Below, piece after piece: positions 10,175 through 50,155 of a stretch of 55,042 nucleotides of DNA (positions are counted from its first letter, which is position 1; each line of letters starts with the position of its first letter). A program made the translations under genes and the position numbers. Source of the DNA: a virus. Lineage: Duplodnaviria > Caudoviricetes. The notes under the pieces are model-generated. The model saw only the letters and a list, made by a program, of their open reading frames with translations, had not been told where the DNA came from and made no database searches. The stretch lies in the IMG/VR virus record IMGVR_UViG_3300044491_000241, positions 1-55,042 of that record. One strand, 5' to 3'.

Positions 10175-10368
10175 GCCTTAAATTATTAGTAAATAATAAA
10201 GACATCTGGGATTCTTTTGTAGAAGAACTGGATTCTAAACTAAATCGCATCCACACCCAAATAGAGCAATCTACAGCTATAGAAGACGTGTACAGGCTAC
10301 AGGGACATGCCGCCTGTCTTCGTAGATTAAAAAGACTGAGGGACGAAGTAAATGGTAAATCAGACTGA
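10171..10368 (+). CDS. Hypothetical protein downstream of portal
   Basis: ATGA overlap; YRLQG...L..L..LR motif. Confidence 0.7.
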   Translation: MSLKLLVNNKDIWDSFVEELDSKLNRIHTQIEQSTAIEDVYRLQGHAACLRRLKRLRDEVNGKSD

Positions 10369-13300
10369 AGAAGTTTTTGGAAACCCTAACCAAGTTGGTA
10401 TAGGTAGTGTTTCAAGTGCCAGACCACGAGGGGTAATGGGGAGCATACCCCTAAGTGATGCAACCAATGCTTTAGATGTTATTGCAGAAGACACAAAAAA
10501 TTCTAACAAATTAAAATTAAATGACAGTTTAAAAAAAGATGTTGAGTCTATACTTGCTAATGACGAAGAACCAGAGATTAGCCCCAGTACTCCTCCCGTT
10601 GAGGGTGGAATTGGCAGTGTAAGACCAAAGTCTAGACCAATCGTAAGACCAAGAGCTAGGCCAAAACCAAAAAGATTTAGTCCTGTTGATAAAGTTTTAG
10701 AACTTAACTATCTTTTAAAAGGTAAAGCAAACCCTCAATCAGAAACAACCAGAATAATATCTGGTCTTGACCAAAGAAACCCTGATCATCAAAAGACTAT
10801 AAAAGGTTTTTTTGATAGTGCTGTAGGTGGGGAGTCGGGGTTTGATCCAACAACACAAGCCTGGTGTGCTGCTTTTGTTTCCCATATCCTTGAAGAGCTT
10901 GGAGCAGATCCTTTACAATCAAAAGATAAATACGACAGACTTAGAGCAGACAAGTTTAAAAGCTATGGTACAGAGGTTAAACCTGACGGTATCAAAGAAG
11001 GTGACATAGTTGTTTTTGATTTTGATCAAGATGGTAAAGCAGACCACGTAACTTTTTACGCAGGTGATAGAATAACCTCTCAAGGTATGGGGGGTTACAT
11101 TAATGTTTTAGGTGGAAATCAAAGTGGACAGGTTAGCATTAGAGAAAACCATCCCTTTTACACTTGGAATAATGTAGCTGCTATCAGACGAGTTACGTAT
11201 AACGATATTGATTTTGATTTCACAAAAGAAATGGCGGAACGAGATCCTGTATTTAACGAGTTTATGCCTGACTACGCAGGTTCTTCCCAACCATCTCCAG
11301 CAACCTTCGATAAAGGTGGTTTAGCTCAACAAACAGAAGAGTCTTTGGGTTGGGCTGCGGAGGGAAAGAAACTCGCAGTAGATACCCCAGAGGTATCTTT
11401 TAGAGATGCTGCTACTTTTGTTGCTGAGATGACACCTATTGTTGGTGACGCTATGGCGGCTAAGGAAGTCTATGATGAACTACAGAAAGATGAGCCTAAC
11501 TATTACTTAGCAGGTGCGCTAGGCGGTGCGGCTCTTGTAGGTCTTGTTCCTGGCATAGGTGACGCCGCCGCTAAAGCTATTAAGAAGGGCGCTAGAGAAG
11601 TCTTTGATTTGGCAAGGCGCGTAGAGGTTGCCCCTGACACTATGGGGTCTGGCCTTGGTAATGTTAGATTAGCTCCTAAGGCAACAAGTAAAAGCAAACC
11701 TTCTTATACTGACGCAGAACTTTTAGAAGCAGATGACATTATTGATGAATGGGGTAAAGGAAATCTTACCAACACAGAGCTACGTAATAAAATGCGTGAC
11801 AAAGGTTTTGCTATAGAAAATAAAAGAATATCTCCCAAAATGTCAGGAGGTGATCTAGAAGTTGTTGGTCCTGACGGAAACATAATTCCTTGGCAAGACA
11901 TGCCACGTGGTTCAGAAGAAAGAATACCTATAAGACCAATTAACCAATCTAGATTAGAGGCTAGTGGTCTTCCTTACAAACAGGGTGGTGAGTTTACTGA
12001 CGCAAGAACAAAAGAAATACTAACTAATAAAAATGCAAGATCAGTTAACATAAAAGTAAAAACAAATGAACCTCCTAAAGGGGGGATGCCTCAAGCTTCT
12101 ATGGATGCAGCAGGACTAGACGTTGATGAAATAGGATCTTCTGGACCAAAGATATACAGTAACTTAGTTAAGCCAACATCAAAAGGTGGTAAAGCAGGTT
12201 GGAAGTGGCTTAGTAGAAAAGATGAAAACTTAGACACAAATACTCTTGTATCAGTGGTACAAAGAAATCAACATTACTTTACCCTTGAGGCTGACTTCAG
12301 TAAAGGCGCTAAACTACAAACCTATCCCAACAAAGTAGACGAGCCCAGACTAAGGCCCACTGTAAATGGACAATTAGAGTTTGATGAAGAAGTAGGGACT
12401 ATCTCCTTAAGGGGTAAAGAACATCCAGTCTATAGAAAAATAGTAGCTTTTAACCAAGGTGGCCAAGTAATGAATAATCAAATGGAAATGGCATTTATGA
12501 AGCAAGGTGGCATCAAAGACGATGGCATGAACAAAGATCCTGTTTCTGGTAATCCTATTCCTCCTGGTTCTATGGCTAAGGAAGTCAGAGATGATATTCC
12601 CGCTATGCTGTCTGAGGGTGAGTACGTAGTTCCTGCTGACGTTCTTCGTTTTTATGGGGTAAATTTCTTTGAGAATCTTCGTGGTCAAGCAAAACAGGGC
12701 TTGAACACAATGGAACAAAGTGGTAGGATTGGTGGTGAACCTCTTTCTCCCCAGCAAGTTCAACAAAATATGGGTAAGGCTCCAGTTACAGCTAACGCTG
12801 GGGTTTACATGGCTGGACAACCTCAAGGGCTACAGCAGTCACAGACAGCATCTCAGAACTTCAACCCTATGAACTACCCCATAGTGGGTGGCTCCACACT
12901 AAGGGGTGTGCAAGAAAGTGTAACAACCTTTAAGACATTTGTTAATTCTGTAGATGGGAGGACACAAATTGTAGAGTTTGTTGACGGTAAGATCAAAAAC
13001 CCAACAATGACAAAGTTTACTCAACCTCCTTATTTTGAACAAGGTTCCTCTGCTCTTAAGGATGCAAAGAAAGCTGCAGCACAGCCTACTTCTTCTGGTG
13101 GAGGTGGTGGTGGTGGCGCTCCCCCACCAGAACCTAAAGACCCTAACGAGTGGGCTGAAAAAATTACAGACCCTATGGCATGGGCAAACGAGAACCTACA
13201 AGGTAAAGCTAACACTATTCTTAGCACAATTAGTCTTGGTACAAGTGTAGCTAGAGTAAATGCTATGGCTATCGTAGCAGAAGCACAAGGTAAAAAAGAT

Positions 13301-13735
13301 TTAGCAGATCAACTTAGAACTAAAGCTAGAGAGTTTGTTGCAGCAAACCCAGTTCTTAACTCAATTCCTAATGCTTGGATTGACGGTGACAGAATTGCTG
13401 CTGACTTACAAAAAGACAAGAATATAGTTAATACCTTGTTTGTGCCTAAAGCTAGAAAAAAACAGATGGAAGTAGCAGAGGCTACACCAGAGTTTGATGT
13501 TACAAAATCTAAAGCTCCAGATGATGATAGCGGAAACTTTTTAAAGACTATTATGGCCGCAAATAAAGCAGCAAAAGACGCAGGTAAAACTGAAGTTAGT
13601 TCTACCATTACAAACGCAGGAACGGCAGAACAAGAAGTCTCTGGGGGAACACAAGCAGAACAAGACTATCTTACGTCTGCAGCAGCAGGTAACAAAGGCG
13701 GTCTAATGATGAAAAAAAATAGTAAGAAAAAATAG
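10352..13735 (+). CDS. Large modular virion protein with TIGR02594/NlpC-P60-like and pre-toxin-TG-like segments
   Basis: WCAAFV...GDIVVF...HVTF...VLGGNQS; TPIVGD...GLVPGIGD; DDIPAMLSEGEYVVPAD. Confidence 0.75.
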   Translation: MVNQTEEVFGNPNQVGIGSVSSARPRGVMGSIPLSDATNALDVIAEDTKNSNKLKLNDSLKKDVESILANDEEPEISPSTPPVEGGIGSVRPKSRPIVRPRARPKPKRFSPVDKVLELNYLLKGKANPQSETTRIISGLDQRNPDHQKTIKGFFDSAVGGESGFDPTTQAWCAAFVSHILEELGADPLQSKDKYDRLRADKFKSYGTEVKPDGIKEGDIVVFDFDQDGKADHVTFYAGDRITSQGMGGYINVLGGNQSGQVSIRENHPFYTWNNVAAIRRVTYNDIDFDFTKEMAERDPVFNEFMPDYAGSSQPSPATFDKGGLAQQTEESLGWAAEGKKLAVDTPEVSFRDAATFVAEMTPIVGDAMAAKEVYDELQKDEPNYYLAGALGGAALVGLVPGIGDAAAKAIKKGAREVFDLARRVEVAPDTMGSGLGNVRLAPKATSKSKPSYTDAELLEADDIIDEWGKGNLTNTELRNKMRDKGFAIENKRISPKMSGGDLEVVGPDGNIIPWQDMPRGSEERIPIRPINQSRLEASGLPYKQGGEFTDARTKEILTNKNARSVNIKVKTNEPPKGGMPQASMDAAGLDVDEIGSSGPKIYSNLVKPTSKGGKAGWKWLSRKDENLDTNTLVSVVQRNQHYFTLEADFSKGAKLQTYPNKVDEPRLRPTVNGQLEFDEEVGTISLRGKEHPVYRKIVAFNQGGQVMNNQMEMAFMKQGGIKDDGMNKDPVSGNPIPPGSMAKEVRDDIPAMLSEGEYVVPADVLRFYGVNFFENLRGQAKQGLNTMEQSGRIGGEPLSPQQVQQNMGKAPVTANAGVYMAGQPQGLQQSQTASQNFNPMNYPIVGGSTLRGVQESVTTFKTFVNSVDGRTQIVEFVDGKIKNPTMTKFTQPPYFEQGSSALKDAKKAAAQPTSSGGGGGGGAPPPEPKDPNEWAEKITDPMAWANENLQGKANTILSTISLGTSVARVNAMAIVAEAQGKKDLADQLRTKAREFVAANPVLNSIPNAWIDGDRIAADLQKDKNIVNTLFVPKARKKQMEVAEATPEFDVTKSKAPDDDSGNFLKTIMAANKAAKDAGKTEVSSTITNAGTAEQEVSGGTQAEQDYLTSAAAGNKGGLMMKKNSKKK

Positions 13736-16527: not shown

Positions 16528-17256
16528 ATGGCAACTTACGTTACTCTTGTTAATGAGCTACTTCGTAGATTAAACGAGGTTACTCTTGATACGGCAGGTG
16601 ATGGCTTTGGGACAGTACGTAACGTACAAGCCTTGGCTAAAGATGCAATAAATAGTTCCATTAGAAATATCTTACAGACAGGCCAGGAGTGGCCTTTTCT
16701 TAAAACAACTTATACTCAAGAATTAACTGCAGGAACAAGACAGTACAGCTTTCCTGCAGACTTTTCTAGAGCAGACTGGCAAACTTTCTACATAAAGAAA
16801 CTTTCTTCTGCAGACAACACACCTATGTCTTTACACACTATTACTTATGACGAGTACATACAAAGGTACAGACACTACGATGATACTGGAGAGCAAACAG
16901 GTATTTCAGCCCCTACTCTTGTCTATCAAACTAATGAAGACAAGTTTGGTGTGACTCCTATTCCAGATCAAGCCTACGAGATTGAGTACGTGTACTGGTC
17001 TTTTCCTTCTGATCTTACATCATTTGATGATACAACAGTTGTTCCCGACAGATTTAAACACGTAATTATTGATGGCGCAATGATGTACCTTATGCGGTTC
17101 AGGTCTAATGAGCAGAGTGCTCAGATACATCAAGGCGTGTTTCAAGATGGTATTAAGTCTATGAGAAGAATACTTGTAGATGAACCTCTCCGTATTAGAT
17201 CTACAGTAGTGGATCGCGCTAACTCTTCTAATCAAGTGTTGGGTAGAGTAGTTTAA
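16528..17256 (+). CDS. Head-tail adaptor (tail tubular protein A-like)
   Basis: LVN.LL..LNE start and WPF motif; size and position. Confidence 0.75.
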   Translation: MATYVTLVNELLRRLNEVTLDTAGDGFGTVRNVQALAKDAINSSIRNILQTGQEWPFLKTTYTQELTAGTRQYSFPADFSRADWQTFYIKKLSSADNTPMSLHTITYDEYIQRYRHYDDTGEQTGISAPTLVYQTNEDKFGVTPIPDQAYEIEYVYWSFPSDLTSFDDTTVVPDRFKHVIIDGAMMYLMRFRSNEQSAQIHQGVFQDGIKSMRRILVDEPLRIRSTVVDRANSSNQVLGRVV

Positions 17257-18800
17257 TGGCAGACAACTTAGGTTCCTTTAAAGTATTTGCTCAAGGTGGC
17301 TTGAACCTAAACAGAGATGTTCTATCTCAAGGGGAAATTGCACCTGGTTCAGCTATAACACTTCTAAACTATGAACCAGCTATTACGGGTGGTTACAGAC
17401 GTGTGAGTGGTTTTACTAATGCGTATGGTACGGTCACAGGAACAGGAAGTGTTCTTGGGGTAGTAGTAGCAAATGGGATAAACGATGGTATTCTAGCTGC
17501 TCGTAAACCTTCTAGTGGAAATAACTACTTACATAAATGGAACAACTCTAGTTCATCTTGGGATGCAGTAACGACTTCTGGTTCTCCTACAATGGTGGGT
17601 GTAACTAAGGTTAGATTTACAAGGTACAACTTTGGTAGCCCAAAGGTTATTCTTACAGATGGTATAAATCCTGCAGCTACCTACGATGGTACAACCTACA
17701 CGCAGATTACAGCGTCAGGAGCACCTGACGATCCTAAGTTCTCTGCAGTGTTTCAAAACCATATGTTCTTAGCTGGTGACCCTAACGAGAACACAAACCT
17801 TTACTTTAGTGCACCATACGATGAAACAGATTTTGATCCTGCTAATGGATCAGGGGTAATTAATGTAGGTTTTCCTATTGTAGCAATAAAACCGTTTAGA
17901 GATCAGCTTTTTATATTTGGTACAACTAATATAAAAAGACTAGAGGGAAATAATATAACTAACTTTGCAGCCAGTGAGGTAACAAATGATCTTGGTTGCA
18001 TTGCGTCAGACAGTGTAGTTGAAATTGCAGGTGATTTGCTTTTCTTATCTCAAGATGGCCTACGTCCTATTTCAGGAACCAACAAAATTGGGGACGTTAA
18101 CCTTGAGACTATATCAAAAAACATTCAGTCTTTGTTTACTGATGTTGTATTTGAACAAGATCTAGATGCTTTATCTTCTGTAGTAATTAGAGGTAAGTCA
18201 CAATTCAGACTTTTCTATGATATTGACAACTCTAACGGTTTGATTGGTGGTCTACGATTAGGGCAACAGGGTGGAATTAACTTTGAGTTTGGACAGCTAC
18301 TAGGTATCGAAGTTACTTGCGCTGCGAGTGGATACATAGGACAAAACGAGGTTGTTATACATGGTGACAAGTCTGGTGCTGTGCACAGACAAGAGCAAGG
18401 AAATAACTTTGGTGGCAACAATATTGTAAGTGTCTACCAAACACCATTCTTGCACATGCAAGATCCAGAGCAACGTAAGATTATTCATAACGTTGCTACT
18501 TATCTTAGATCAGAAGGTAATAACGAGATCATAATGTCCGTAGTCTACGATTATGATGATACTACTATTCTTAATCCAACTAACTTTACACTGACAAATG
18601 AAGGTGCGGCTGCTTTCTATAACGAAGCAATCTACGATGAAGCCAACACAATTTGGAGTGGTAACCCATCTCCAGTCAAAAGGGTTAATGTTTCAGGGTC
18701 AGGTAAATCAGTTTCTTTTAGGTACGTTACAAATGACACGAATGCGGCACACAGTATACAAGGTATTGTTGTGACGTTTGGTGTGGGGGATAGATTATAA
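17256..18800 (+). CDS. Tail nozzle/stabilisation protein (P22 gp10-like)
   Basis: GGLN start, GC.A.DSV.EI.GDL.FLSQDGLR beta-propeller pattern; position. Confidence 0.75.
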   Translation: MADNLGSFKVFAQGGLNLNRDVLSQGEIAPGSAITLLNYEPAITGGYRRVSGFTNAYGTVTGTGSVLGVVVANGINDGILAARKPSSGNNYLHKWNNSSSSWDAVTTSGSPTMVGVTKVRFTRYNFGSPKVILTDGINPAATYDGTTYTQITASGAPDDPKFSAVFQNHMFLAGDPNENTNLYFSAPYDETDFDPANGSGVINVGFPIVAIKPFRDQLFIFGTTNIKRLEGNNITNFAASEVTNDLGCIASDSVVEIAGDLLFLSQDGLRPISGTNKIGDVNLETISKNIQSLFTDVVFEQDLDALSSVVIRGKSQFRLFYDIDNSNGLIGGLRLGQQGGINFEFGQLLGIEVTCAASGYIGQNEVVIHGDKSGAVHRQEQGNNFGGNNIVSVYQTPFLHMQDPEQRKIIHNVATYLRSEGNNEIIMSVVYDYDDTTILNPTNFTLTNEGAAAFYNEAIYDEANTIWSGNPSPVKRVNVSGSGKSVSFRYVTNDTNAAHSIQGIVVTFGVGDRL

Positions 18801-21800
18801 ATGGCAGGTTATCAGAGAAAAAGTGCTGGGGATATTGTTGCGGGGGCGGTTGTTAAAGCTGCACCAGTAGACACAGAGTTTAATTGTCTAAGAGACGCAT
18901 TCAACGAATCCACAGGTCACAAACACGATGGATCTTCAACAGAAGGTGCTTACGTTCCTATTATCGCAGACTCAGACGCAAATAATAAAGTCTGTGTTGA
19001 TACATCAAATAATAGATTAAGCTTCTTTACAGAGGTTTCTTCTGCTGCGACTGAGCAAATGAGGGTTCAAGACGGAGCCATCGTACCTGTAACGGATGAT
19101 GACATTGACCTTGGTATTACAACTACAAACAGATTTAAAAATCTATTTCTATCAGGTAATGCTACGGTTGGAGGAACATCCACTGTAACAGGAAACAGTA
19201 CTTTTGCTGGTACTCTTGGAGTTACAGGTGTTGCTACTTTTTCTGATACAGTTTGTGTGCCAGCTTTTAAAGCTACAGGGACATCAACTCTAACTACTGT
19301 GGACATCAATGCAGGTAATATTGATGGCACTGTTATCGGTGCTTCTACTGCTGCTGCTGGCAGCTTTACTACAGTTAGTACGTCAGGACAGGGTACTTTT
19401 GCTACAGTCGATGTCAATGGCGGTACTATTGATGGTGTTATTATTGGCGGCACTACGCCAGGTCTTATAACTGGTACAACCATCACAGGTACTAGTCTTG
19501 TAGGTCCAGTTACAGGTAATGTCACAGGTAACATTACTGGTAACGTAACAGGTGACCTAACAGGTAATGTTGCAGGAAACGTAACAGGTGATGTCACTGG
19601 GGATCTCACAGGAAATGTTACAGGAGATGTAACAGGAGACCTGACTGGTAACGTTACAGGTAATGTAACTGGTAATGTAACTGGTGACTTGACAGGTGAC
19701 GTAACTGGAGATGTAACAGGTGATGTTACAGGCAATGTTACAGGAAACGTAACAGGGAATGTCACTGGTAACCTAACAGGAAATGTTACAGGTAACGTAA
19801 CTGGTGACTTAACTGGGGATGTTACTGGTGACTTAACTGGTAATGTTACTGGTGACTTAACTGGTGATGTCACAGGAGATGTTACTGGAGATCTGACTGG
19901 TAATGTTACTGGAAATGTTACAGGTGACGTAACTGGTGACGTAACTTCAACAGGAACGTCTACCTTTACAACCTTGCAGCTAACAGGGGATATGGATGCT
20001 AACAGTAATAAGATTACAAATTTAGCAGAGCCTGTTTCTGATTCTGATGCAGCCACAAAATTGTATGTAGATAATGCAGTTGAAGGTTTGGATGTAAAAG
20101 GTTCTGTTAGAGTTGCTACAACTGCAAACATTACTTTGAGTGGTACTCAAACTATTGATGGTATTGCTGTAGTTGCAGACAACAGAGTTCTTGTTAAAGA
20201 TCAAAGCACAGCTTCAGAGAATGGTGTGTACGTAGTTGCTGCAGGTGCTTGGTCTAGATCAGATGACGCAGATACTTTTGATAAACATGTAGGTGCTTTC
20301 TTCTTTGTCGAAGAAGGTACAACAAATGGTGACAATGGTTTTGTAGGCACTGCAGATTCTGGTGGTACTCTTGATACTACTGACATAACATTTGTACAAT
20401 TCTCAGGTGCAGGTCAGATTACAGCAGGTACTGGTCTTACTAAGTCTGGAAACACTATTAATGTTGTTACTGCTGACTCAGGGAGAATTGTAACAAATGC
20501 AGATAATATTGATCTTGCTACTACAGGTGTGAGTGCAGGAACTTATAAGTCTGTTACCACAGATGTTTATGGTCGTATTACAAGTGGTACAAATCCAACT
20601 ACTCTTTCTGGTTATGGTATTGCTGATGCCTATACAATTACATGCTTAGATACTTTACTTGATGCTAAGTTAGATGTAGCAGGAGATACAATGACTGGGA
20701 ACCTTTCAATGGGTTCTAACAAAGTCACATCTACTGCAACTCCAACAACTGATGATGACCTTACTCGTAAAGGTTACGTTGATAGTCAAGATGCTCTTAA
20801 GTTTAACTTAACTGGTGGGACTCTTACTGGTGATTTAACTCTTGGTAGTAATAAAGCCACATCTACAGCTACTCCTACAACAGATGATACTCTTACACGT
20901 AAGGGCTATGTTGATACTCAACGTGATACAAGACTAGCTTGTACAGGTGGGACTTTATCAGGAAGTGTAGAAACTACTTGTCCTATTATTTCTTGTTACA
21001 CACCTGCCAATGCATGTGACCTGACTAATAAGTGTTACGTTGATGGTATATTACAATCAGCTACTGCAGCCTGTACTTCTGCTGCTTGTGCATTAGCAAG
21101 TCAGACTGCTGCAGCAACCTCTGAAACAAATGCAAGTAACTCAGCTTCTGCTGCTGCTACTTCAGCCAATAATGCTGCTACATCTTATGACGATTTTGAT
21201 GATAGGTACCTTGGTGATAAGGCATCAAATCCCTCTGTTGATAACGATGGAGATGCCCTTCTGACAGGAGCAATCTACTGGAACTCAACAGACAATGCAC
21301 TAAAAATTTATACAGGTTCTGCATGGAACAGTGCAGCATTTACTCTTGGTGATGCTCTTACTGCTGTTTCTGAGGATACTTCTCCAACACTAGGTGGAAA
21401 CTTAGCAGGTAACTCTCAATGTATTACTGGTGTTGCAAACATTTGTGCTACTAACCTTTATGGCGCTGTAACAGGTAATGTGACAGGAAACGTAACTGGC
21501 AATGTTTCAGGTAATCTTACAGGTAATGTAACTTCTTCTGGCACAAGTTGTTTTGCTACAGTTTGTACAACTGGTAACAGTACTCTTGTAGGAAACCTTA
21601 CTGTTAATGGAAACACTACCCTAGGTAATGCAGCTAGTGACACTGTAACTCTTACAGCAGACGTTGCTTCTAATATTATTCCAAGTGCTGATAGCACTCA
21701 CAGCCTAGGTGACAGTTCTAACTACTGGTCACATGGATACATAGATGCTATCACAACAACAGGAGCAGTTGTAATTGGAGGAGATCTAACTGTTAATGGT

Positions 21801-22817
21801 ACAACCACTACTGTAGCTACGACAAACACAGTTGTATCAGATTCCTTGATAGAATTAGGAAATGGAACATCTGGTTCCCCATCTAATGACGCAGGTATTG
21901 TTATTGAACGTGGTAGCAGTGCCAACGCATTCATGGGTTTTGATGAGTCAGCAGACAAGTTTATTGTAGGTACAGGTACATTTACTGGTGCATCTACAGG
22001 AAACCTTTCTATTACAACAGGTACACTTGTAGCTAACGTAGAGGGTAATGTAACAGGAGATGTCACTGGTAATGCTGATACTGCAACAACACTAGAAACT
22101 GCACGTACAATAGGTGGTGTTTCTTTTAATGGTTCAGCTAACATAAACCTACCAGGTGTTAACACTGCAGGAAACCAGAACACATCTGGTAATGCAGCTA
22201 CAGCAACTGCTTGGGCTACAGCTAGAACACTTTGTATTTGTGGGGATGCTACAGGCTCTGCTTCTATTGATGGATCTGGTAATGTAAACTTGACGGTTGC
22301 AGTAGTGGATGATAGCCACAACCACACAGTAGCTAACGTTGATGGACTAGCTACCTGCTTATCTAATAAAGCTTCTACTACCTGTGCAGGTACTATTGTT
22401 ACCTGTTTAGCAGGTAAGGCAGCAATAGCTGGTGCAACTACTCAAAACTTTAGTGCGCTATGTGCAATTGGTGCAAATTGTATGATAGCCCCTGTTATTT
22501 GTGGTACGACCTGTGTCGTAGCACCTGACATCAATGCAACGTCTGACTGCAGATGCAAGAGTAACATTGTTACAGTTGAGAATGCTTACTGCAAGTTAGG
22601 TCAAATACGTGGGGTTAACTACAACTGGAAAGACTCAGGAAAATACACAATAGGTGTTATTGCACAAGAAGTAGAAGAAGTTCTTCCAGAACTTGTAACT
22701 ACAGATGACGATGGCATGAAGGCAGTAAACTATAACGGCATCGTAGGTGTTCTAGTTGAAACAGTGAAATGCCTTCAAAGCAAAGTAGAGGAACTAGAGA
22801 ATGGCTCTAAAGGTTAG
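18801..22817 (+). CDS. Long tail fibre with C-terminal peptidase S74 chaperone
   Basis: GHKHDG N-terminal anchor, TKxYVD repeats, xTG[ND] repeats, SDxRxKxNI...GVIAQEVE...VNY chaperone; about 28 Cys. Confidence 0.9.
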   Translation: MAGYQRKSAGDIVAGAVVKAAPVDTEFNCLRDAFNESTGHKHDGSSTEGAYVPIIADSDANNKVCVDTSNNRLSFFTEVSSAATEQMRVQDGAIVPVTDDDIDLGITTTNRFKNLFLSGNATVGGTSTVTGNSTFAGTLGVTGVATFSDTVCVPAFKATGTSTLTTVDINAGNIDGTVIGASTAAAGSFTTVSTSGQGTFATVDVNGGTIDGVIIGGTTPGLITGTTITGTSLVGPVTGNVTGNITGNVTGDLTGNVAGNVTGDVTGDLTGNVTGDVTGDLTGNVTGNVTGNVTGDLTGDVTGDVTGDVTGNVTGNVTGNVTGNLTGNVTGNVTGDLTGDVTGDLTGNVTGDLTGDVTGDVTGDLTGNVTGNVTGDVTGDVTSTGTSTFTTLQLTGDMDANSNKITNLAEPVSDSDAATKLYVDNAVEGLDVKGSVRVATTANITLSGTQTIDGIAVVADNRVLVKDQSTASENGVYVVAAGAWSRSDDADTFDKHVGAFFFVEEGTTNGDNGFVGTADSGGTLDTTDITFVQFSGAGQITAGTGLTKSGNTINVVTADSGRIVTNADNIDLATTGVSAGTYKSVTTDVYGRITSGTNPTTLSGYGIADAYTITCLDTLLDAKLDVAGDTMTGNLSMGSNKVTSTATPTTDDDLTRKGYVDSQDALKFNLTGGTLTGDLTLGSNKATSTATPTTDDTLTRKGYVDTQRDTRLACTGGTLSGSVETTCPIISCYTPANACDLTNKCYVDGILQSATAACTSAACALASQTAAATSETNASNSASAAATSANNAATSYDDFDDRYLGDKASNPSVDNDGDALLTGAIYWNSTDNALKIYTGSAWNSAAFTLGDALTAVSEDTSPTLGGNLAGNSQCITGVANICATNLYGAVTGNVTGNVTGNVSGNLTGNVTSSGTSCFATVCTTGNSTLVGNLTVNGNTTLGNAASDTVTLTADVASNIIPSADSTHSLGDSSNYWSHGYIDAITTTGAVVIGGDLTVNGTTTTVATTNTVVSDSLIELGNGTSGSPSNDAGIVIERGSSANAFMGFDESADKFIVGTGTFTGASTGNLSITTGTLVANVEGNVTGDVTGNADTATTLETARTIGGVSFNGSANINLPGVNTAGNQNTSGNAATATAWATARTLCICGDATGSASIDGSGNVNLTVAVVDDSHNHTVANVDGLATCLSNKASTTCAGTIVTCLAGKAAIAGATTQNFSALCAIGANCMIAPVICGTTCVVAPDINATSDCRCKSNIVTVENAYCKLGQIRGVNYNWKDSGKYTIGVIAQEVEEVLPELVTTDDDGMKAVNYNGIVGVLVETVKCLQSKVEELENGSKG
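19509..19940 (+). repeat. 36 tandem [VLI][TA]G[ND] tetrapeptide repeats
   Basis: Counted from the translation; codons vary between units. Confidence 0.9.
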
Positions 22818-23016
22818 TGGCACAGACGTAATAGACAATAGCAAGAATATACCATCAGGTACTCCATCAGTACAGGGTACTATAGTTACTGCTACAGTTC
22901 TTACGGCACCTTCAGGTAACACTGCAGGTAGACCTGCTTCCCCAAACACAGGCCACATCTACTTCGATACAGACGAAGGTAAGTTATTAGCTTACAACGG
23001 AACTGAATGGGCTTAA
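22801..23016 (+). CDS. Small tail-fibre-associated protein, paralogous to the N-terminus of the next gene
   Basis: PSG.TA.RP.SP.TG.IYFDTDE..L.AY.G..W is shared with the 23047 ORF. Confidence 0.75.
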   Translation: MALKVSGTDVIDNSKNIPSGTPSVQGTIVTATVLTAPSGNTAGRPASPNTGHIYFDTDEGKLLAYNGTEWA

Positions 23017-23046
23017 TTCACGATAGTCTTAGGACGGAGAATATAA

Positions 23047-24531
23047 ATGGCGTATAAGATTAATGGCACTACGGTTGTCGATAACAGCAGGAACGTATGT
23101 GCCTGTTGTGTTACCTCGTGTTGTATTACAGCTAGTTCTAGGATGGATGTACCATCAGGCGATACAGCCAGTAGACCAGGATCTCCTGCTACTGGTTCTA
23201 TTTATTTTGATACAGATGAAACTTCACTTGTAGCCTATGATGGTTCAGCTTGGGCTTCTGTAGGTGGTGGTGGATATCCTCAAATAGCTGCTCATTGCAA
23301 TGCTGTACCTACTATAAATGGTACAATTCAGGATAGGCAAGTAAAAGTACCAGTCTCTTTTAATAATATGGTCCACAGTATAAATGGTTCTTACAAAGCA
23401 GGTAATCCCTACAACAATTCTCTTTTTGTAGGTCTGAAAACAACAGGTACTACTCTAGAACTATGTAACGTCAGTGGCGGTGGTACTAGCACACTAGGTG
23501 CTTGGTTCACAGGAGGTAGTTTTGTATCCCCAGATAAAAATTTCTATTCTTTTAGTACTGGGGGTGAAAGTAATTTCTGTGTCTGCGGTAAAAGTTTTGG
23601 ATTCTCACCAGAAAAGATTTACCAGATGTCTTCCTGTAACAGGTCCACAAGTGTAGCTGGTACTATTATGACCCTAGGGGCTTATTCAGGTAACACCAAA
23701 ATATTTGGGATTCATGCGTCTGGGCATTTTGGTATGTGGTGTTGTACTGGCACTTTAATATGTATGGGTCGAATATGTCAGAACAATCAATCTTTTGCTA
23801 ATGCCTATGGTTTATTTACAACGTGTTCTGGTGATATTGGCCTGTTCCTTTGTAACGGTAAATTTATTGTTCATTTAGATGTTGATACTTTATCTATTCA
23901 ATGTCAGTTTTGCTACACCATTACAGAGCCTACAAAGATGGATGGGCAAGGTGGAGCACCAAGAGAAACAACGACTGCAGTTGGATTTCCTGGTTGCTGT
24001 AAGTACGGGTACGTTTGGGATAAAGTCAATTGTTGTATGTACAATATTATTTCTAGCAACGGCTCAAATCAGTTTGAAACCAAGCCAACTTGGATGTCTG
24101 TGAATGACAGTCTTTACTTTAAAACCTTTGGGTGCTACGGGGGTGGAAAATGTTGTACTAAACTAGAAAGGGTTAACGCAAATGGCACTAGAGACTGTTA
24201 TATAAGTGTTTGCGGTGGACTGAGTTATTTTTGGACCACTGATTTTGATACGTATATTGCTAATAATTTAGGTGAAAAGTTAATAAGTGTTCCTGGCACT
24301 GCCTGTGATAATGGGATATTTCCAGCATACGCCGTTAACGTAGACGTTAGTGTTAGTCATAGTGCGTGGAAAAGTGGAGTTTTAAGCTGTATTTTTCCTT
24401 CTGGTGGTGCCATGTCTTGCACAGCATCACCTGCTGCTAGTCAAGGCACACACAGTATTTACGTTGTGCAACTTAACTGTACCTACTGTATACAATCTTG
24501 TCTTTGTGTAACGGATGTTGTACGGACTTAA
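23047..24531 (+). CDS. Cys-rich tail fibre/receptor-binding protein
   Basis: GGAG RBS; MAYKINGTTVVDNSRN docking N-terminus; about 34 Cys in 494 aa. Confidence 0.75.
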   Translation: MAYKINGTTVVDNSRNVCACCVTSCCITASSRMDVPSGDTASRPGSPATGSIYFDTDETSLVAYDGSAWASVGGGGYPQIAAHCNAVPTINGTIQDRQVKVPVSFNNMVHSINGSYKAGNPYNNSLFVGLKTTGTTLELCNVSGGGTSTLGAWFTGGSFVSPDKNFYSFSTGGESNFCVCGKSFGFSPEKIYQMSSCNRSTSVAGTIMTLGAYSGNTKIFGIHASGHFGMWCCTGTLICMGRICQNNQSFANAYGLFTTCSGDIGLFLCNGKFIVHLDVDTLSIQCQFCYTITEPTKMDGQGGAPRETTTAVGFPGCCKYGYVWDKVNCCMYNIISSNGSNQFETKPTWMSVNDSLYFKTFGCYGGGKCCTKLERVNANGTRDCYISVCGGLSYFWTTDFDTYIANNLGEKLISVPGTACDNGIFPAYAVNVDVSVSHSAWKSGVLSCIFPSGGAMSCTASPAASQGTHSIYVVQLNCTYCIQSCLCVTDVVRT

Positions 24532-24549
24532 TTGTTAAAAGCAAAGACC

Positions 24550-24578
24550 TTGCCTTTGCCTATAAAAAGTACTAATAT
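24550..24578 (+). promoter_or_regulatory. Candidate promoter for the modification cassette
   Basis: TTGCCT-N17-TAATAT in the intergenic gap. Confidence 0.4.
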
Positions 24579-24630
24579 ACTCACCAAAACCTGTGAGGTT
24601 TTGTAAAGATAATAATAAGAAAGAGTATGC

Positions 24631-25557
24631 ATGAAAACTGTCTTTATGATTGACGGTGGTGCGGGGAGAGCTATTGCAGCAATTCCTGCTCTCATCAAGT
24701 ACAGTAAGAGTAATCCTGACTTTAGGGTTATAGTACATGGTTGGGATACTTTGTACTGGGGTATTCCTGAGCTTCATGACAAGGTGTTTAACCCAGACCA
24801 GAAGGGTGCCTTTGAGCAGTTTTTTATGGATGCTGATATAGTTCTTTCCCCAGAACCTTACAGAGTACCTGGGTACTACAGACAAGAAAAGTCTTTGTCA
24901 GAGGCCTTTGACTACTTGATTAACGAAACAGACGATCACTCTGACCTTGTTGCTCCTATGCTTAAAACAAATAGAAACGAGGAGTTACAAGCTGCTAACT
25001 TTATGCAGCAAGTTAGGCAGCAGCAACAGAAGCAGAAGACTATTGTTATACAGCCCTTTGGTCGATCAATAGAAAAGCCACAAGAGGGTGTTCTACTAGA
25101 CCAGTCTTCTCGTTCTATTAATCCTGATACGTATATCAAACTGGTAAAGAAGTTAGCTACTAAATACAACCTAGTGTTGTTTGCAGAGAAGGCCTTCTGG
25201 ATGGAAGAAGATACGTACACAATGAAGCCTGAGGCTGACTTGCGTATGTGGACTGCCTTTATTGATGCAGCAGACTATTTCATTGGTTGTGACTCTGTTG
25301 GTCAACATATGGCTCGTGCTATGAATAAACCTGGGACTGTTGTCATTGGTTCTACCTTTGCTATCAACACTTCCTATCCTAATTACTTTAACATTATTGA
25401 AAGGGATGTTCAGAAGAAATACTCACCTATTCGTATCTCAGGTCTTGAGTCTCACTTGGCAGATAGAGCTAATGAAGCTACTGTTGAGTTCACAGACGAA
25501 GAGATCAACAAGATGTACGAGTCTATTGTAAAAGACATTGAAAAGAAGGTGAAGTAA
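24631..25557 (+). CDS. GT9-like (heptosyltransferase-fold) glycosyltransferase
   Basis: N-terminal GGAGR...IPAL (family G.GD...P.L); C-terminal ADYFIGCDSVGQHMARAMNKP matching G.DSG..H.A.A...P. Confidence 0.75.
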   Translation: MKTVFMIDGGAGRAIAAIPALIKYSKSNPDFRVIVHGWDTLYWGIPELHDKVFNPDQKGAFEQFFMDADIVLSPEPYRVPGYYRQEKSLSEAFDYLINETDDHSDLVAPMLKTNRNEELQAANFMQQVRQQQQKQKTIVIQPFGRSIEKPQEGVLLDQSSRSINPDTYIKLVKKLATKYNLVLFAEKAFWMEEDTYTMKPEADLRMWTAFIDAADYFIGCDSVGQHMARAMNKPGTVVIGSTFAINTSYPNYFNIIERDVQKKYSPIRISGLESHLADRANEATVEFTDEEINKMYESIVKDIEKKVK

Positions 25558-25558
25558 T

Positions 25559-27274
25559 ATGAACATTCTAGGAATTAACCCAGGACATAACGGTGCAGCT
25601 GCTCTCCTTGTAGACGGTGAGCTTGAGTTCTACATTGAAGAAGAACGTCTGTCTCGTAGTAAGTATGACGGTAACCCCTTCATGGGTATTCTTGAGGGAT
25701 TAAAGTATGGTATTGACGTTCTGGTACTGGGTGGAACAAGCCCACAGCACCCTAGTCTGCCTTGGACAGGGGAAGATCCTTACAGTGCGTTAATCAGGAA
25801 GCACAACCCTAAAGTCCAAGTTATAAACGTAGGGCATGCACATCACCTTGGTCATGCTGCCTCATCCTTCTACAACTCAGGCTTTGAGGATGCTGCTGCT
25901 GTTATTGTGGACGGGTCTGGTACACGCCAAGAAATCCAAGTAAATGAAGAGGGTCAGAAGAACCCTGGTTTTGAGACTGAGACAATCTTCAACTGTGACT
26001 ACGAAGAGGGTATCAAGCCAGTGTTTCAGTCCTTCGGTGGTAATGCTGATACACAACGTGTAGTAGGGGATGCCATTGAGATGGACTCAGCTATTACCTT
26101 AGTTAAAGCATACGAGGCTGTATCTGAGTACTTAGGCTTTGGGTTCATCGAAGCAGGTAAGACTATGGGTCTTGCACCTTACGGTAAAAACGATGATCTT
26201 ATCCCTTCTCTTTTCTACGGTGGGCGTGGTAACAAGAACGTCTTTGTTCCTAACTATCCTGCTGGTGCTCATATTGACCACACACGTCACCCATACCTGA
26301 CACTGAAGCAAGACCCACGTACTTGGCACAATGACCCTTCTAAAGTAACAGATGCTGCCAAGAACCTAGCATGGGCTGTCCAGGATGAGACACAACGTCT
26401 TGTTGGTGACCTGATTGAGAAGGCTGTTAAGCTTACAGGCAAGAAGAACATCGTTATTGCTGGTGGCTATGGACTCAACTGTGTAGCCAATTACTACTAC
26501 CAGAAACGGTTCCCTGACCTGAACATCTATATAGATCCCATCTCACACGATGGTGGTACTGCACTGGGTCTAGCACAGTTGGTTCACTACACAGAGACTA
26601 AGGACAAGACTATTCGTCCACTAAAGACCCTGTACCTTGGACCTGAACGTGAGGAGTCATACGACTTCGGTGATATCAAAACAACAGACGTAACACCAGA
26701 AGACATTGCTGCTCTTCTCGTTGATCGTAAGATTGTTACTATGTTCCAAGGTCGATCAGAGGCTGGTCCTCGTGCTCTAGGTAATCGTTCTATCTTGTAC
26801 GATCCCACTGACCCTAAGGGTAAGGATTACGTCAACAAGGTAAAAGGTAGAGAGTGGTTTCGTCCCTTTGCTGGTTCTATGTTGCAGGAGGATTTTGAGG
26901 AATGGTTCGAGACATACGGAATGAAAGAGTCTCCCTTCATGATGTATGCAATGGACTTCAAGCTGGCTAAACATGGTGAAGTTCCTGCTATCACACACGT
27001 AGACGGTACTTGCCGTATTCAGACTGTGACAAAAGAACAGAACCCTGTGTACTACAGCCTGATCAAAGTCTTCAAAGAGAAGACTGGTGTACCTATAGTG
27101 TTCAACACTAGCTTCAACCTTGCAGGTGAGCCTCTCGTTGAGACCATTGCGGATGCTGTACATACAATCAAGAACTCAGACCTTGAGTACCTGTACGTAC
27201 CAGAAGTAGGGAAGTTGTTGCACTACCCCTACAACGATAAGGAAGTAGAGATAGTTGAGGAGAAAGCTGCTTAA
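25559..27274 (+). CDS. Carbamoyltransferase, NodU/CmcH/TobZ family
   Basis: ILGIN.GH...EEERLSR.K, HH.GHA, VDG.G, GK.MGLAPYG, GG..LNC.AN, GPRALGNRS, RE.FRPFA, HVDGT.R.QTV, NTSFN..GEP. Confidence 0.95.
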   Translation: MNILGINPGHNGAAALLVDGELEFYIEEERLSRSKYDGNPFMGILEGLKYGIDVLVLGGTSPQHPSLPWTGEDPYSALIRKHNPKVQVINVGHAHHLGHAASSFYNSGFEDAAAVIVDGSGTRQEIQVNEEGQKNPGFETETIFNCDYEEGIKPVFQSFGGNADTQRVVGDAIEMDSAITLVKAYEAVSEYLGFGFIEAGKTMGLAPYGKNDDLIPSLFYGGRGNKNVFVPNYPAGAHIDHTRHPYLTLKQDPRTWHNDPSKVTDAAKNLAWAVQDETQRLVGDLIEKAVKLTGKKNIVIAGGYGLNCVANYYYQKRFPDLNIYIDPISHDGGTALGLAQLVHYTETKDKTIRPLKTLYLGPEREESYDFGDIKTTDVTPEDIAALLVDRKIVTMFQGRSEAGPRALGNRSILYDPTDPKGKDYVNKVKGREWFRPFAGSMLQEDFEEWFETYGMKESPFMMYAMDFKLAKHGEVPAITHVDGTCRIQTVTKEQNPVYYSLIKVFKEKTGVPIVFNTSFNLAGEPLVETIADAVHTIKNSDLEYLYVPEVGKLLHYPYNDKEVEIVEEKAA

Positions 27275-27918
27275 GGTAGCTTCTCAACAAAGCTAAGAAG
27301 GTTGTCGAAGACCTTTGTCTTCTTTCTTAACTTCTCCTTAGAGAACTTTGATAACTCTTCTTCAGTAACCACGCCATGTCCTGTACGCACTAGGATCGGG
27401 GTGGCACCAATTCTTTCAGCAGCTTTGAGGTCAGACATCTTGTCCCCTACATAGAAACCACCCTGTTTAAAACGGGCCTTTCCCTCAAAGATTTCTTTCT
27501 CTGCTCTTTGAAACATACCAATATTAGGTTTGGCATATATATCTTCTTTTAAGGAGGACTCAGAATAAAAGAGGCCATCAATCGTGTATATACCAGCCCT
27601 GCCAAATATCTCAAACATACGTTGATGCACAGATTCTACCTGCTCATGGGTTTGTAACCCCTTAATAATACCACCTTGGTTAGTAAGTATAACTACTTTG
27701 TACCCTTTAATACGTAGCTTATGAATGGCTGCTAAAGACTCAGGTATAATTTCAAAGTCTTCGGGGTCTGTGATGTAGTGTCCTTTGTCTACGTTGATAA
27801 CACCGTCACGATCTAACCCTACAATAGCTTTAGGAAAGACTGTAGGCCAATCTGGTGGTAACTCCTGCTGAGGTTGTTGACTTGGTTCTTGTGTGATAAT
27901 ATGCTTGAATCTAGACAT
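27271..27918 (-). CDS. gmhB: D,D-heptose 1,7-bisphosphate phosphatase (HAD family)
   Basis: LDRDGVIN, TNQGGI, KPNIGM, VGDKMSDLKAA, LVRTGHG motifs. Confidence 0.9.
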   Translation of the reverse strand: MSRFKHIITQEPSQQPQQELPPDWPTVFPKAIVGLDRDGVINVDKGHYITDPEDFEIIPESLAAIHKLRIKGYKVVILTNQGGIIKGLQTHEQVESVHQRMFEIFGRAGIYTIDGLFYSESSLKEDIYAKPNIGMFQRAEKEIFEGKARFKQGGFYVGDKMSDLKAAERIGATPILVRTGHGVVTEEELSKFSKEKLRKKTKVFDNLLSFVEKLP

Positions 27919-27935
27919 ACTAGGGTATTTACCTC

Positions 27936-28337
27936 ATGAAGAAAGTTTTTGTTAACGGTGCATTCGATGTGTTGCACTCTGGTCACCTAGATCTTCTTGA
28001 GTTTGCAGAGATGTTAGGCGGTCATTTGCTAGTAGCTATTGACACAGATAGGCGTATTGAGTATAACAAGGGTATCGGGAGACCTTTTAATTCTTTGTCA
28101 ATACGTAAACATATAATGTCTATGTTAAAGCCTGTCAATAGTGTCAAAGTATTTGATACAGACGAGGACTTAGTAGGTATTATAAAAGATTACCAGCCTG
28201 ACGTAATGGTAAAAGGATCTGACTGGAAGGGAAAGACAATACTTGGGGAGGAGTACTGCAAAGAAATAGTATTCTACGAGAGAACCAATGGTCAGTCCAC
28301 AACAAAAACAATTCAAGATTTTATTGATAGGCGATAG
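27936..28337 (+). CDS. hldC: Heptose-1-phosphate nucleotidyltransferase (RfaE domain II/HldC)
   Basis: NG.FDVLH.GH, KG..RP, PDV.VKG.DW, STT motifs. Confidence 0.85.
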   Translation: MKKVFVNGAFDVLHSGHLDLLEFAEMLGGHLLVAIDTDRRIEYNKGIGRPFNSLSIRKHIMSMLKPVNSVKVFDTDEDLVGIIKDYQPDVMVKGSDWKGKTILGEEYCKEIVFYERTNGQSTTKTIQDFIDRR

Positions 28338-29043
28338 TTGCTACGATGATTACCACTACGGCAGCATAAACAGAATAAGCCCAGAAGCTCCTGTCCCTGT
28401 CTTAGATATGGATAGAGTTGTTACAAAAAAGGGCATGACTTTTAATGTCTTTAATAACGTACTTGCTCTTGGTGCAGAAGCTCACATCATAACAGAGTTC
28501 AGTGAAAGAAAACACAGGTATCTTGACAGTAAGACTGGTCAGCAACTCCTTAGAGTAGACGAGAAGATTGATAAGAAGATTGTTGATACGGCAGAGGAAA
28601 ACCTTAACGATTACGATGTAGTCATTGTCTCAGACTATAACAAGGGTTTCTTCAACGAAGATGACATCACTGAAATTATAAGTAAGTATGATGGTCCCAT
28701 TTTTGTTGATACTAAGAAGAGAGATCTATCTATCTTTGATGGATGCTTTGTTAAGATTAATCAGTATGAGTACGAAGCCTCTGAAAGGCTGACAGAAGAA
28801 CTCATAGTCACCTACGGCTCAAAGAAAGTCGAGTACAAAAACAAGACCTACACCCCTCCTAAAGTGGGAGCCTACGATGTGTGTGGAGCAGGTGATACAT
28901 TTTTAGCTGCTCTTGCCTATAAGTACTGTGAAGAATATAATATGGATGAAGCTATAAAGTTTGCAATGGTTGCTGCTTCACTTACAGTACAACACATAGG
29001 TGTGTATGCACCCACACTAGAGGAAATACAAAATGCGGCTTGA
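28288..29043 (+). CDS. hldA: Heptose-7-phosphate kinase (RfaE domain I/HldA, PfkB family)
   Basis: IGD...D.Y..G...RISPEAPVPV, QQLLRVD, SDYNKG, DVCGAGDT. Confidence 0.9.
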   Translation: MVSPQQKQFKILLIGDSCYDDYHYGSINRISPEAPVPVLDMDRVVTKKGMTFNVFNNVLALGAEAHIITEFSERKHRYLDSKTGQQLLRVDEKIDKKIVDTAEENLNDYDVVIVSDYNKGFFNEDDITEIISKYDGPIFVDTKKRDLSIFDGCFVKINQYEYEASERLTEELIVTYGSKKVEYKNKTYTPPKVGAYDVCGAGDTFLAALAYKYCEEYNMDEAIKFAMVAASLTVQHIGVYAPTLEEIQNAA

Positions 29044-29386
29044 GGGCGTAGTGGAAAAGGGTTGGGGGTCTGAGTTGATCTGGGCAACCAACGACAAGTA
29101 TTGCGGTAAGTTCATGAACTTTAAGCAGGGTGCTAAGTTCTCAATGCACTTCCACAGAGAGAAAGATGAGACTTGGTTTGTTCTTACTGGTAAGTTCTTA
29201 GTAACTTGGATTGATACTGATGATGCAAGTGAGCACGTAGAAGAGCTTAACGAGGGTGACACTTGGCATAACCCACCTCTGGTTCCACACCGCATTACCT
29301 GCCTAGAAGAAGGAGTAGTTGTTGAAGTATCTACACCAGACTCTGTTGAGGATAACTATCGTGTAGCTAAGGGCGACAGCCAATAA
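29033..29386 (+). CDS. Cupin (sugar isomerase/epimerase-like)
   Basis: KGWG.E, SMHFH..KDETW and P...HR...E.ST cupin motifs. Confidence 0.8.
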   Translation: MRLEGVVEKGWGSELIWATNDKYCGKFMNFKQGAKFSMHFHREKDETWFVLTGKFLVTWIDTDDASEHVEELNEGDTWHNPPLVPHRITCLEEGVVVEVSTPDSVEDNYRVAKGDSQ

Positions 29387-30156: not shown

Positions 30157-30170
30157 GGTAACAGATAAAC

Positions 30171-50078: not shown

Positions 50079-50155
50079 TGGCCCACCCTGCAGGACTCGA
50101 ACCTGCAACCTACTGCTTAGAAGGCAGTTGCTCTATCCAGTTGAGCTAAGGATGG
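50079..50155 (-). tRNA. tRNA-Arg(UCU)
   Basis: Acceptor stem CCATCCT/AGGGTGG, D arm AGCTCAACTGGATAGAGC, anticodon arm ACTGC-CTTCTAA-GCAGT, TTCGAGT T-loop, encoded CCA. Confidence 0.95.

Follow-up and report, generated by a model that had tools for sequence, protein, structure and literature searches.

Cysteine-rich tail fibres and hyper-cysteine neighbour proteins are genetically coupled to a putative heptose glycosylation cassette in marine phages

Tail fibres are normally almost free of cysteine (Cys), and the question raised by the virus record IMGVR_UViG_3300044491_000241 is why its tail fibre gene (18801–22817, + strand; 1338 amino acids (aa)) should encode 28 of them. The window analysed here is that whole record (55,042 bases, 98% complete by CheckV), and it is assigned to an HMO-2011-type marine podophage because the genes for its capsid, portal, adaptor and nozzle have their nearest counterparts in the Roseobacter phages CRP-1 and CRP-9 and the Puniceispirillum phage HMO-2011. 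The fibre Cys are the mild end of a trait that runs through a whole module, with about 3% Cys in the distal fibre, 7% in the next protein and up to 13% in relatives of the latter. These Cys-rich proteins are coupled near one-to-one, in two unrelated phage groups, with a downstream cassette encoding a GT9-like glycosyltransferase, a carbamoyltransferase and heptose synthesis enzymes; the Cys enrichment is specific to the reading frame and conserved across the class of Cys-rich fibres. We put the probability that the Cys-rich proteins are the substrates of this cassette, with close Cys pairs serving as disulfide staples, at about 55%.

The fibre gene was identified by matches to PHROG tail-fibre families and to Pfam Peptidase_S74 (E 8.6e-14), and its product has homologues in the fibres of the Roseobacter phages CRP-1, CRP-2, CRP-9 and CRP-13. 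The protein is laid out as an N-terminal anchor, GNVTG-type repeats, a Cys-rich distal half and an S74 chaperone. The first-pass annotation had counted about 28 Cys, about 25 of them distal; the number is exactly 28 (22 TGT and 6 TGC codons), with 4 in residues 1–669 and 24 after, or 25 after residue 610 in the distal part formed by residues 611–1338 (20631–22817, + strand). All the motif pairs it quoted are present in the translation (TATPTTDDDLTRKGYVD / CYTPANACDLTNKCYVD, TSTGTSTFTTL / TSSGTSCFATVC and ETARTIGG / ATARTLCICG), as is SDCRCKSNI. Its statement that other structural proteins are nearly Cys-free holds for 12 other open reading frames (ORFs) of the structural block, which contain 6 Cys in 6506 aa (0.09%), and breaks down at the very next ORF (ORF494; 23047–24531, + strand), which has 34 Cys in 494 aa (6.9%). 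At the background rate of 0.09%, finding 25 Cys among 729 residues has a binomial P of 1e-30. The description of the Cys as mostly isolated did not survive: 20 of the 25 distal Cys have another Cys no more than 8 residues away, and 12 of the 24 gaps between them are ≤8 residues, against 5.9 expected under random placement (P = 0.001). The close pairs are 727/732, 739/745, 758/763, 874/882, 917/922, 1145/1147, 1195/1202, 1221/1227, 1234/1238 and 1250/1252.

The excess lies at the codon and protein level, because frame 0 alone shows a rise in TGY, from 0.5 per 100 codons in the proximal part of the fibre to 3.4 in the distal part; the values for frames 1 and 2 are 0.0 and 11.1 per 100 codons distally and 0.7 and 13.4 proximally. 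A nucleotide-level bias is ruled out as the cause by the lack of a matching rise in frames 1 and 2. Another genetic code is not needed, as all ORFs are open under table 11, and a diversity-generating retroelement was rejected since the repeat copies differ at all base types; no reverse transcriptase family was matched among the 50 window ORFs scanned.

For comparison, 199 distinct fibre-like proteins were gathered, and their Cys content was bimodal and not graded (none, or 1.5–4.7%), with 138 below 0.3% and 41 at or above 1.2%. Among the best 120 relatives of the distal 639 residues, 20 contain 1.45–4.4% Cys, 45 contain none and 55 are below 1%. The relatives that lack the cassette have no Cys in their fibres, a result that leaves the proposed selection for thiols standing. 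That proposal is further supported by the frame-specific excess, by its presence in 41 of the 199 homologues and by the class-wide conservation of Cys motifs. At the 28 Cys positions of the window, the commonest residue in Cys-poor homologues is Thr (10), Ala (8) or Val/Leu/Ile (6), with Gly, Ser, Asp and Glu at one position each. The positions taken by Cys are therefore small and mostly polar, though not all of them are polar.

In the six closest full-length relatives (72–77% identical) between 15/25 and 20/28 of the window Cys are conserved, no better than residues overall, and 18 Cys positions are retained in all or nearly all of the six. All six relatives have Cys at both 855 and 887; the window has Cys at neither. 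The third YVD-type repeat (20940–21089, + strand) contains 7 Cys (residues 714, 727, 732, 739, 745, 758 and 763) that are missing from all six, and its core PIISCYTPANACDLTNKCYVD (residues 727–745) is present exactly in other Cys-rich fibres, indicating that this repeat is a mosaic block. More distally, Cys1145 and Cys1147 form the CIC of ATARTLCICG (22233–22241, + strand) and are Cys in 28 and 27 of 40 Cys-rich homologues, respectively; they align to both Thr of TARTITLTG, a T-x-T on one strand face of the solved Dec protein (PDB 6E3C).

The S74 intramolecular chaperone domain (residues 1248–1338; 22542–22817, + strand; Pfam PF13884) contains Cys 1250, 1252, 1264 and 1324. The PF13884 match (52 bits vs a cut-off of 22) spans profile positions 1–58 of 58 over residues 1248–1300, and Ser1248 and Lys1253 of SDCRCK align to the S and K of SSDRRIKKDI in PDB 6F45. 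The exchange of the usual SDxRLK for SDCRCK, already remarked upon in the first-pass annotation, was confirmed and is class-wide: Cys occupies the Leu position in 27/27 Cys-rich fibres (26 SDCRCK and 1 SDMRCK among those having the motif) vs 0/11 Cys-poor fibres, all 11 of which read SDxRLK.

The enrichment is far stronger in ORF494 and its family, here termed hyper-Cys proteins. The N-terminal 75 aa of ORF494 are conserved and contain CACCVTSCC, and its body is variable, fast-diverging and, in poor models, all-beta. Its homologues have 6.3–12.7% Cys in 42 of 44 cases, the other two being weak matches. A search with the N-terminal module in a library of 1.84 billion representatives, considering proteins of ≥250 aa, showed that 53 of the 61 representatives with the ORF494 N-terminus have 6.8–13.0% Cys, with family members reaching about 1200 aa, whereas 61 of 63 proteins matching only a common fibre motif internally have <1% Cys. 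The family comprises at least 53 clusters at 50% identity in public data, and the largest extreme among cassette loci is 145 Cys in 1141 aa. Among the hyper-Cys proteins of about 1140 aa, pairwise identity is 0.21–0.46, Cys is the best conserved residue (0.54) and Gly the next (0.43), and about 46% of Cys positions turn over while the content stays near 10%; among ORF494 relatives, Cys conservation is 0.57 vs 0.42 overall identity. Relative to the Cys-poor proteins that cassette-free phages encode at this place, hyper-Cys ORFs gain 9.5 percentage points of Cys at the expense of Thr (−3.3), Asp (−2.5), Ala (−2.4), Ser (−2.0) and also Gly. CxC and CC are mildly over-represented (log2 +0.4 to +0.5), and Cys counts follow no parity rule (25 odd and 19 even among 44 non-redundant proteins). 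A classical disulfide-rich domain was rejected, because Cys positions are not near-invariant and counts are not even.

The coupling between these proteins and the cassette was assessed in three samples of related viral contigs, chosen by GT9-like gene, by nozzle gene and by Cys-rich fibres. The GT9-like-gene sample contained 38 loci, 33 with at least 3 kb upstream and 27 with the fibre in view; 32 of the 33 have 1–3 ORFs of ≥6.5% Cys (200 to 1190 aa; 26 distinct sets) directly upstream, and 21 of the 27 fibres have ≥1% Cys. The nozzle-gene sample, which is blind to the cassette, contained 80 loci; for 22, the downstream sequence extends over at least 8.4 kb. A hyper-Cys ORF is present in 13/13 of those with the cassette (3 of the 13 carrying identical proteins) and in 0/9 of those without, and the fibres of the nine cassette-free loci have ≤0.1% Cys. 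With two Cys-rich fibres as queries, the fibre sample gave 120 loci and 84 distinct fibres; the cassette together with a hyper-Cys ORF was found beside 14/14 fibres of ≥1% Cys (at least 9 kb downstream in view) and 0/14 Cys-poor fibres (at least 7.6 kb). Among isolates without the cassette, the fibres of CRP-1, CRP-9 and HMO-2011 contain 0 Cys, and no ORF of this region exceeds 3.2% Cys in any of the three.

The same arrangement is found in an unrelated group of phages. The GT9-like protein matches 23 of 50,697 phage records (35–52% identity), all of them T4-like cyanophages or viruses from single-cell amplification. The six records that were opened (P-SSM2, S-SSM7, S-CAM3, Sf-FS3, AG-345-O18 and AG-345-P14) are all alike, with a gene order of tail fibre, 1–3 ORFs of 8–11.6% Cys, GT9-like gene, carbamoyltransferase and heptose genes; in P-SSM2, T4-GC 302–308 are the GT9-like gene, a Nol-like carbamoyltransferase and the heptose genes. 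A hyper-Cys protein of S-SSM7 matches 21 of the 50,697 records, and these are the same phages as those matched by the GT9-like protein except AG-345-O18 and AG-345-P14, which carry hyper-Cys ORFs of another type. The hosts are picocyanobacteria for the cyanophages vs Roseobacter and SAR116 for the nearest isolates of the window, so the travelling partner of the cassette is the Cys-rich proteins and not a host envelope.

In the available text of the two papers describing these cyanophage clusters, the 'LPS gene' (lipopolysaccharide) clusters of P-SSM2 were interpreted as altering the host surface (PMC1079782), and those of P-SSM2 and S-SSM7 as possibly 'stuffer DNA' (PMC3037559). The word cysteine is absent from both main texts, and no mention of the upstream ORFs of about 10% Cys, or of the module in HMO-2011-type podophages, was found in them.

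Several further features of the cyanophage loci were recorded. The hyper-Cys proteins P-SSM2 gp304 and gp306 and S-SSM7 gp114–116 fall in PHROGs 35878 and 4205, whose function is unassigned (cyanophage hyper-Cys loci: 8919–9989 and 10718–11785 in L056, and 7857–10250 in L057), and a core region is common to the proteins of P-SSM2, S-SSM7, S-CAM1 and S-CAM3. In AG-345-O18 (L143), the hyper-Cys ORFs have N-termini similar to their counterparts at the HMO-type loci L023 and L028, and the GT9-like gene is 52% identical to that of the window, a resemblance that may bear on the host of cassette-bearing podophages.

In the window, the cassette begins with a GT9-like glycosyltransferase (24631–25557, + strand; 308 aa, 1 Cys; Pfam PF01075, E 0.0015), a putative heptosyltransferase, followed by a carbamoyltransferase of the NodU/CmcH type (25559–27274, + strand; 571 aa; Carbam_trans_C, E 4e-62; Carbam_trans_N, E 2e-22; PHROG 1601). 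The heptose genes are a GmhB-like HAD phosphatase of the heptose 1,7-bisphosphate phosphatase type (27271–27918, − strand; NCBIfam NF006506, E 3e-37), an HldE domain II-like heptose-1-phosphate adenylyltransferase (27936–28337, + strand; NCBIfam TIGR02199, E 8e-28; PHROG 7878), an HldE domain I-like heptose-7-phosphate kinase (PfkB; 28288–29043, + strand; NCBIfam TIGR02198, E 7e-42) and an HldD-like ADP-glyceromanno-heptose 6-epimerase (29386–30156, + strand; NCBIfam TIGR02197, E 5e-64), the last preceded by a small cupin (29033–29386, + strand; Pfam Cupin_2; PHROG 7851). All four heptose steps best match the right families at scores below the equivalog cut-offs, and from gene context an ADP-heptose donor would be available from the genes directly downstream of the GT9-like gene. 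A scan of 50 window ORFs gave no match to an SIS-type GmhA isomerase, and for this reason the cupin, whose weak matches are to mannose-6-phosphate and lyxose isomerase, may supply the isomerase step.

The GT9-like protein lies under the curated cut-offs (PF01075, 18.4 bits vs 22; TIGR02201, 26.6 vs 170). Its NCBIfam matches are to heptosyltransferase III, RfaQ and heptosyltransferase I (E 3e-6 to 4e-3) and cover the C-terminal half only; all family matches are confined to residues 121–244, in the C-terminal, sugar-nucleotide half. Pfam and NCBIfam family searches gave no similarity to the N-terminal acceptor domain of LPS-core enzymes, and as acceptors bind to the N-terminal half in the GT-B fold, this fits a different acceptor. 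The ten best Foldseek matches of a low-confidence predicted structure are all GT9 enzymes (3TOV, WaaC, WaaF and TibC; E 9e-6 to 1e-4), and searches of PDB sequences, by the protein itself or by a profile built from 12 relatives (E up to 1), gave nothing meaningful. The carbamoyltransferase is above the cut-off for both domains (Carbam_trans_C, 209 bits; Carbam_trans_N, 80 bits) and scores 145 bits against the NodU equivalog NF041651, far under its cut-off of 1000, and is thus a member of the family and not NodU itself.

Two annotations in this region call for comment. PHROG 7851 and cyanophage GenBank records call the cupin a 'cysteine dioxygenase', a striking label beside Cys-rich proteins, and it was rejected as no such Pfam family was matched up to E 10; the cupin of locus L056 (16295–16651) bears the same label. 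A cyanophage protein of 106–114 aa annotated as 'phosphoheptose isomerase' starts with DIDGT, which is typical of HAD phosphatases. All genes of the block run in one direction except that for the GmhB-like phosphatase, which lies on the minus strand in the window and in related podophage loci alike.

A functional tie between the cassette and the Cys-rich proteins is likelier than chance linkage, because hyper-Cys proteins were never found without the cassette, because the gene order persists to 35% identity in two phage groups, and because the cyanophages and the nearest isolates of the window infect different hosts. The simplest tie would be that the cassette glycosylates the Cys-rich proteins; from these patterns we infer the substrate role, the kind of sugar, the formation of disulfides and all of the chemistry. 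The phage would make ADP-heptose late in infection, the GT9-like enzyme would transfer heptose to both the hyper-Cys protein and the tip of the fibre, and the sugar would be carbamoylated by the carbamoyltransferase. After lysis, in oxic seawater, the close and co-varying fibre Cys pairs would form disulfide staples within or between chains. Because bare thiols in oxic seawater should oxidise, such staples are the best reading of these pairs, and they are supported by the close pairing (P = 0.001), the covariation of 855 and 887 and the top rank of Cys conservation in the proteins of about 1140 aa. Of the roles offered by the first-pass annotation (modification, crosslinks or metal ligands), the cassette link thus favours modification, and the pairing and covariation favour crosslinks; none was singled out.

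If the Cys-rich proteins are substrates, the choice between S-linkage to Cys, which would cap the thiols, and O-linkage to Ser/Thr is close to even, with O-linkage slightly ahead. Tentatively, a GT9-family enzyme may S-heptosylate tens to more than 100 Cys in the fibre tip and in hyper-Cys proteins with a putative receptor-binding role, with a NodU-type enzyme carbamoylating the product; on that proposal, densely placed Cys might serve to attach a sugar coat, resistant to glycosidases, to the portion of the virion that makes contact with the host. S-linkage agrees with the near one-to-one dependence, with Cys placed where relatives have Thr, Ser or Ala, with the turnover of Cys positions at constant content, with the absence of a parity rule and with the alignment of CIC to the T-x-T of Dec. 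Against it stand a contig with the cassette only, the lack of a sequon, the Cys of the S74 chaperone and the above-average conservation of Cys in hyper-Cys proteins. We also know of no GT9 enzyme that acts on Cys or thiols.

This last point weighs as well on the substrate role in general, as do several other results. The contig with the cassette only (L038 / G001; 47.7 kb, 85% complete) nowhere contains an ORF of ≥4% Cys, showing that the cassette can exist without hyper-Cys proteins; its 1272-aa fibre has 3 Cys, and it gave no match to the GmhB-like phosphatase. The fibre itself need not be Cys-rich, given that 6 of the 27 fibres in the GT9-like-gene sample have <0.3% Cys. The three samples share contigs and many of the contigs are related, so the coupling counts are not independent events, and adjacent genes can stay together through block inheritance alone. 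No sequence context was found around 3239 Cys in 44 non-redundant proteins beyond mild Cys clustering (log2 odds within 0.8). The four Cys of the S74 domain are conserved across the Cys-rich class, and characterised S74 chaperones are cleaved off the mature fibre, so that some of the Cys would not end up on the virion surface. The structural models have low confidence: that of the GT9-like protein (predicted local distance difference test score (pLDDT) 52.8, template modelling (TM) scores 0.35–0.44) is a lead to the fold only, and that of ORF494 (pLDDT 41.8; Atlas 0.41) matches only beta-propellers, at TM 0.2–0.3 by query, so that a propeller-like body is likewise no more than a lead.

A somewhat doubtful alternative is that the Cys serve as disulfide staples only, with bonds formed within or between chains after lysis toughening the tail tip, while the cassette acts on the host envelope or on another target such as DNA and adjoins the Cys-rich genes merely by inherited linkage or a common host type. 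The close pairing of fibre Cys (P = 0.001), the co-varying pair 855/887, the status of Cys and Gly as the most conserved residues in hyper-Cys proteins and the L038 contig all fit this explanation, which would nevertheless leave unexplained the absence of hyper-Cys proteins from cassette-free loci (0/9 and 0/14), the matching sets of phages among the 50,697 records and a gene order kept to 35% identity across hosts with different envelopes. Odd and even Cys counts (25 and 19) do not suggest pairing, the turnover of about 46% of Cys positions is far above that of classical disulfide-rich domains, and no thiol oxidase, isomerase, thioredoxin, Dsb or Erv family was matched among the 50 window ORFs. 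An action on the host surface accords with the published view, in the text available, of the P-SSM2 clusters as LPS genes (PMC1079782, PMC3037559). As for DNA, phage glycosyltransferases can add heptose to 5-hydroxymethylcytosine (bioRxiv 10.1101/2023.12.21.572611), but in the accessible part of that report the enzyme is T4 beta-GT-like and not GT9, and no cytosine hydroxymethylase or TET family was matched among the 50 window ORFs.

It is improbable that the Cys, including those of CxC motifs (CIC, CRC), are ligands for Zn, Fe, Cu or similar metals along the trimer axis or in clusters. Metal binding would permit odd Cys counts and would suit both the modest enrichment of CxC and CC (log2 +0.4 to +0.5) and Cys1145/Cys1147, which, judged from the Dec alignment, sit two residues from one another within a beta-strand motif, where a bond between them is unlikely; yet His is not enriched in a way that points to mixed sites (2.0% vs 1.2%), no metal-binding family was matched in the Pfam and PHROG scans, about 130 Cys per chain greatly exceeds the need of discrete sites, trace metals are scarce in the open ocean and there is no connection to the sugar cassette. 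Less probable still is that the thiols are functionless, having drifted upward in a fast-evolving, recombining region that tolerates them. Mosaic blocks would be expected of such a region, and the conservation of fibre Cys (15/25 to 20/28, at 72–77% overall identity) is no better than that of other residues; drift is opposed by the frame-specific excess, by a distribution that is bimodal and not graded, by the two base changes needed for most Thr/Ala swaps, by entire Cys-bearing motifs kept class-wide and by only 0.09% Cys in the neighbouring structural genes.

Glycosylation of the Cys-rich proteins by the cassette has partial parallels in known systems. The TibC/AAH autotransporter heptosyltransferases use ADP-heptose as donor, as proposed for the window, and have a GT9-type GT-B fold, with TibC (4RAP, 4RB4) among the top ten Foldseek matches of the predicted structure; their acceptor is a repetitive, beta-rich surface protein encoded beside the enzyme. 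They modify Ser in bacterial adhesins and form a dodecamer with a Cys-based iron finger, which the phage GT9-like protein lacks (1 Cys in 308 aa), and the phage enzyme differs further in having its own ADP-heptose pathway, a carbamoyltransferase and Cys-rich neighbours. The glycocin S-glycosyltransferases SunS, GccA and ThuS attach an S-linked sugar to Cys of a substrate that is a gene neighbour and also has disulfides; these are GT2 (GT-A) enzymes that place a hexose on one Cys of a small secreted peptide. The window differs in having a GT9-like, putatively GT-B enzyme as its only glycosyltransferase, heptose as the likely sugar and tens to more than 100 possible sites in virion-type proteins, and no GT2/GT-A enzyme of the glycocin type was matched among the 50 window ORFs scanned.

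Mycobacteriophage glycosyltransferases decorate the structural proteins of their own virions, with O-linked sugars on capsid and tail-tube proteins and, unlike the window, without Cys-rich substrates, a heptose pathway or a carbamoyltransferase. In the LPS inner core of Pseudomonas aeruginosa, 7-O-carbamoyl-heptose is made by a GT9 heptosyltransferase and a NodU-family carbamoyltransferase; there the acceptor is the LPS core, whereas the N-terminal half of the phage GT9-like protein has no similarity to LPS enzymes. The S74 domain is full-length, C-terminal and has the Ser...Lys motif, as in endosialidases and long tail fibres, and differs from the usual form in reading SDCRCK in place of SDxRLK and in its 4 Cys. 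The cyanophage 'LPS gene clusters' (P-SSM2, S-SM2 and S-SSM7) have, by the available text, the same genes as the window (PMC1079782, PMC3037559). No account of Cys-rich phage fibres or of a link to the cassette was found in the literature covered, most subscription journals and supplements lying outside it. Taken singly, the S74-tipped fibre, the GT9-like enzyme, the NodU-type enzyme and the heptose pathway each belong to a known kind; the combination and the proposed class of Cys-rich substrates are new.

In the window as a whole, the structural genes occupy roughly 6.4 to 39.5 kb of the + strand. A scan of 18500–30400 for promoters and terminators gave signals at or under the shuffled expectation. 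Two antisense ORFs overlap the fibre gene (19067–20131, − strand, 354 aa; 21722–22327, − strand, 201 aa) and are unlikely to be genes; the former reads as SPVT repeats, the shadow of the GNVTG/GDVTG repeat codons. Upstream, a 1127-aa protein (10352–13735) has an endolysin-like stretch (PHROG 21357, residues 167–265) and the nozzle-position protein (17256–18800) matches a PHROG labelled 'amidase'; from these matches both probably have virion-associated wall-degrading functions. There is a single tRNA-Arg (anticodon TCT; 50079–50155, − strand).

This class of ocean phages reverses the rule of Cys-free fibres, with up to 13% Cys in proteins of more than 1100 aa. With this coupling, the "LPS genes" of cyanophages, functionally puzzling since 2005, gain a concrete and testable role, and the module is carried by the cultured phages P-SSM2, S-SSM7, S-CAM1, S-CAM3 and Sf-FS3. 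It may represent a new way of building host-recognition proteins, by a glycan coat, by thiol chemistry or by both. Should the sugar prove to be S-linked, protein S-glycosylation on a large scale, and by a GT9 enzyme, would be without precedent.

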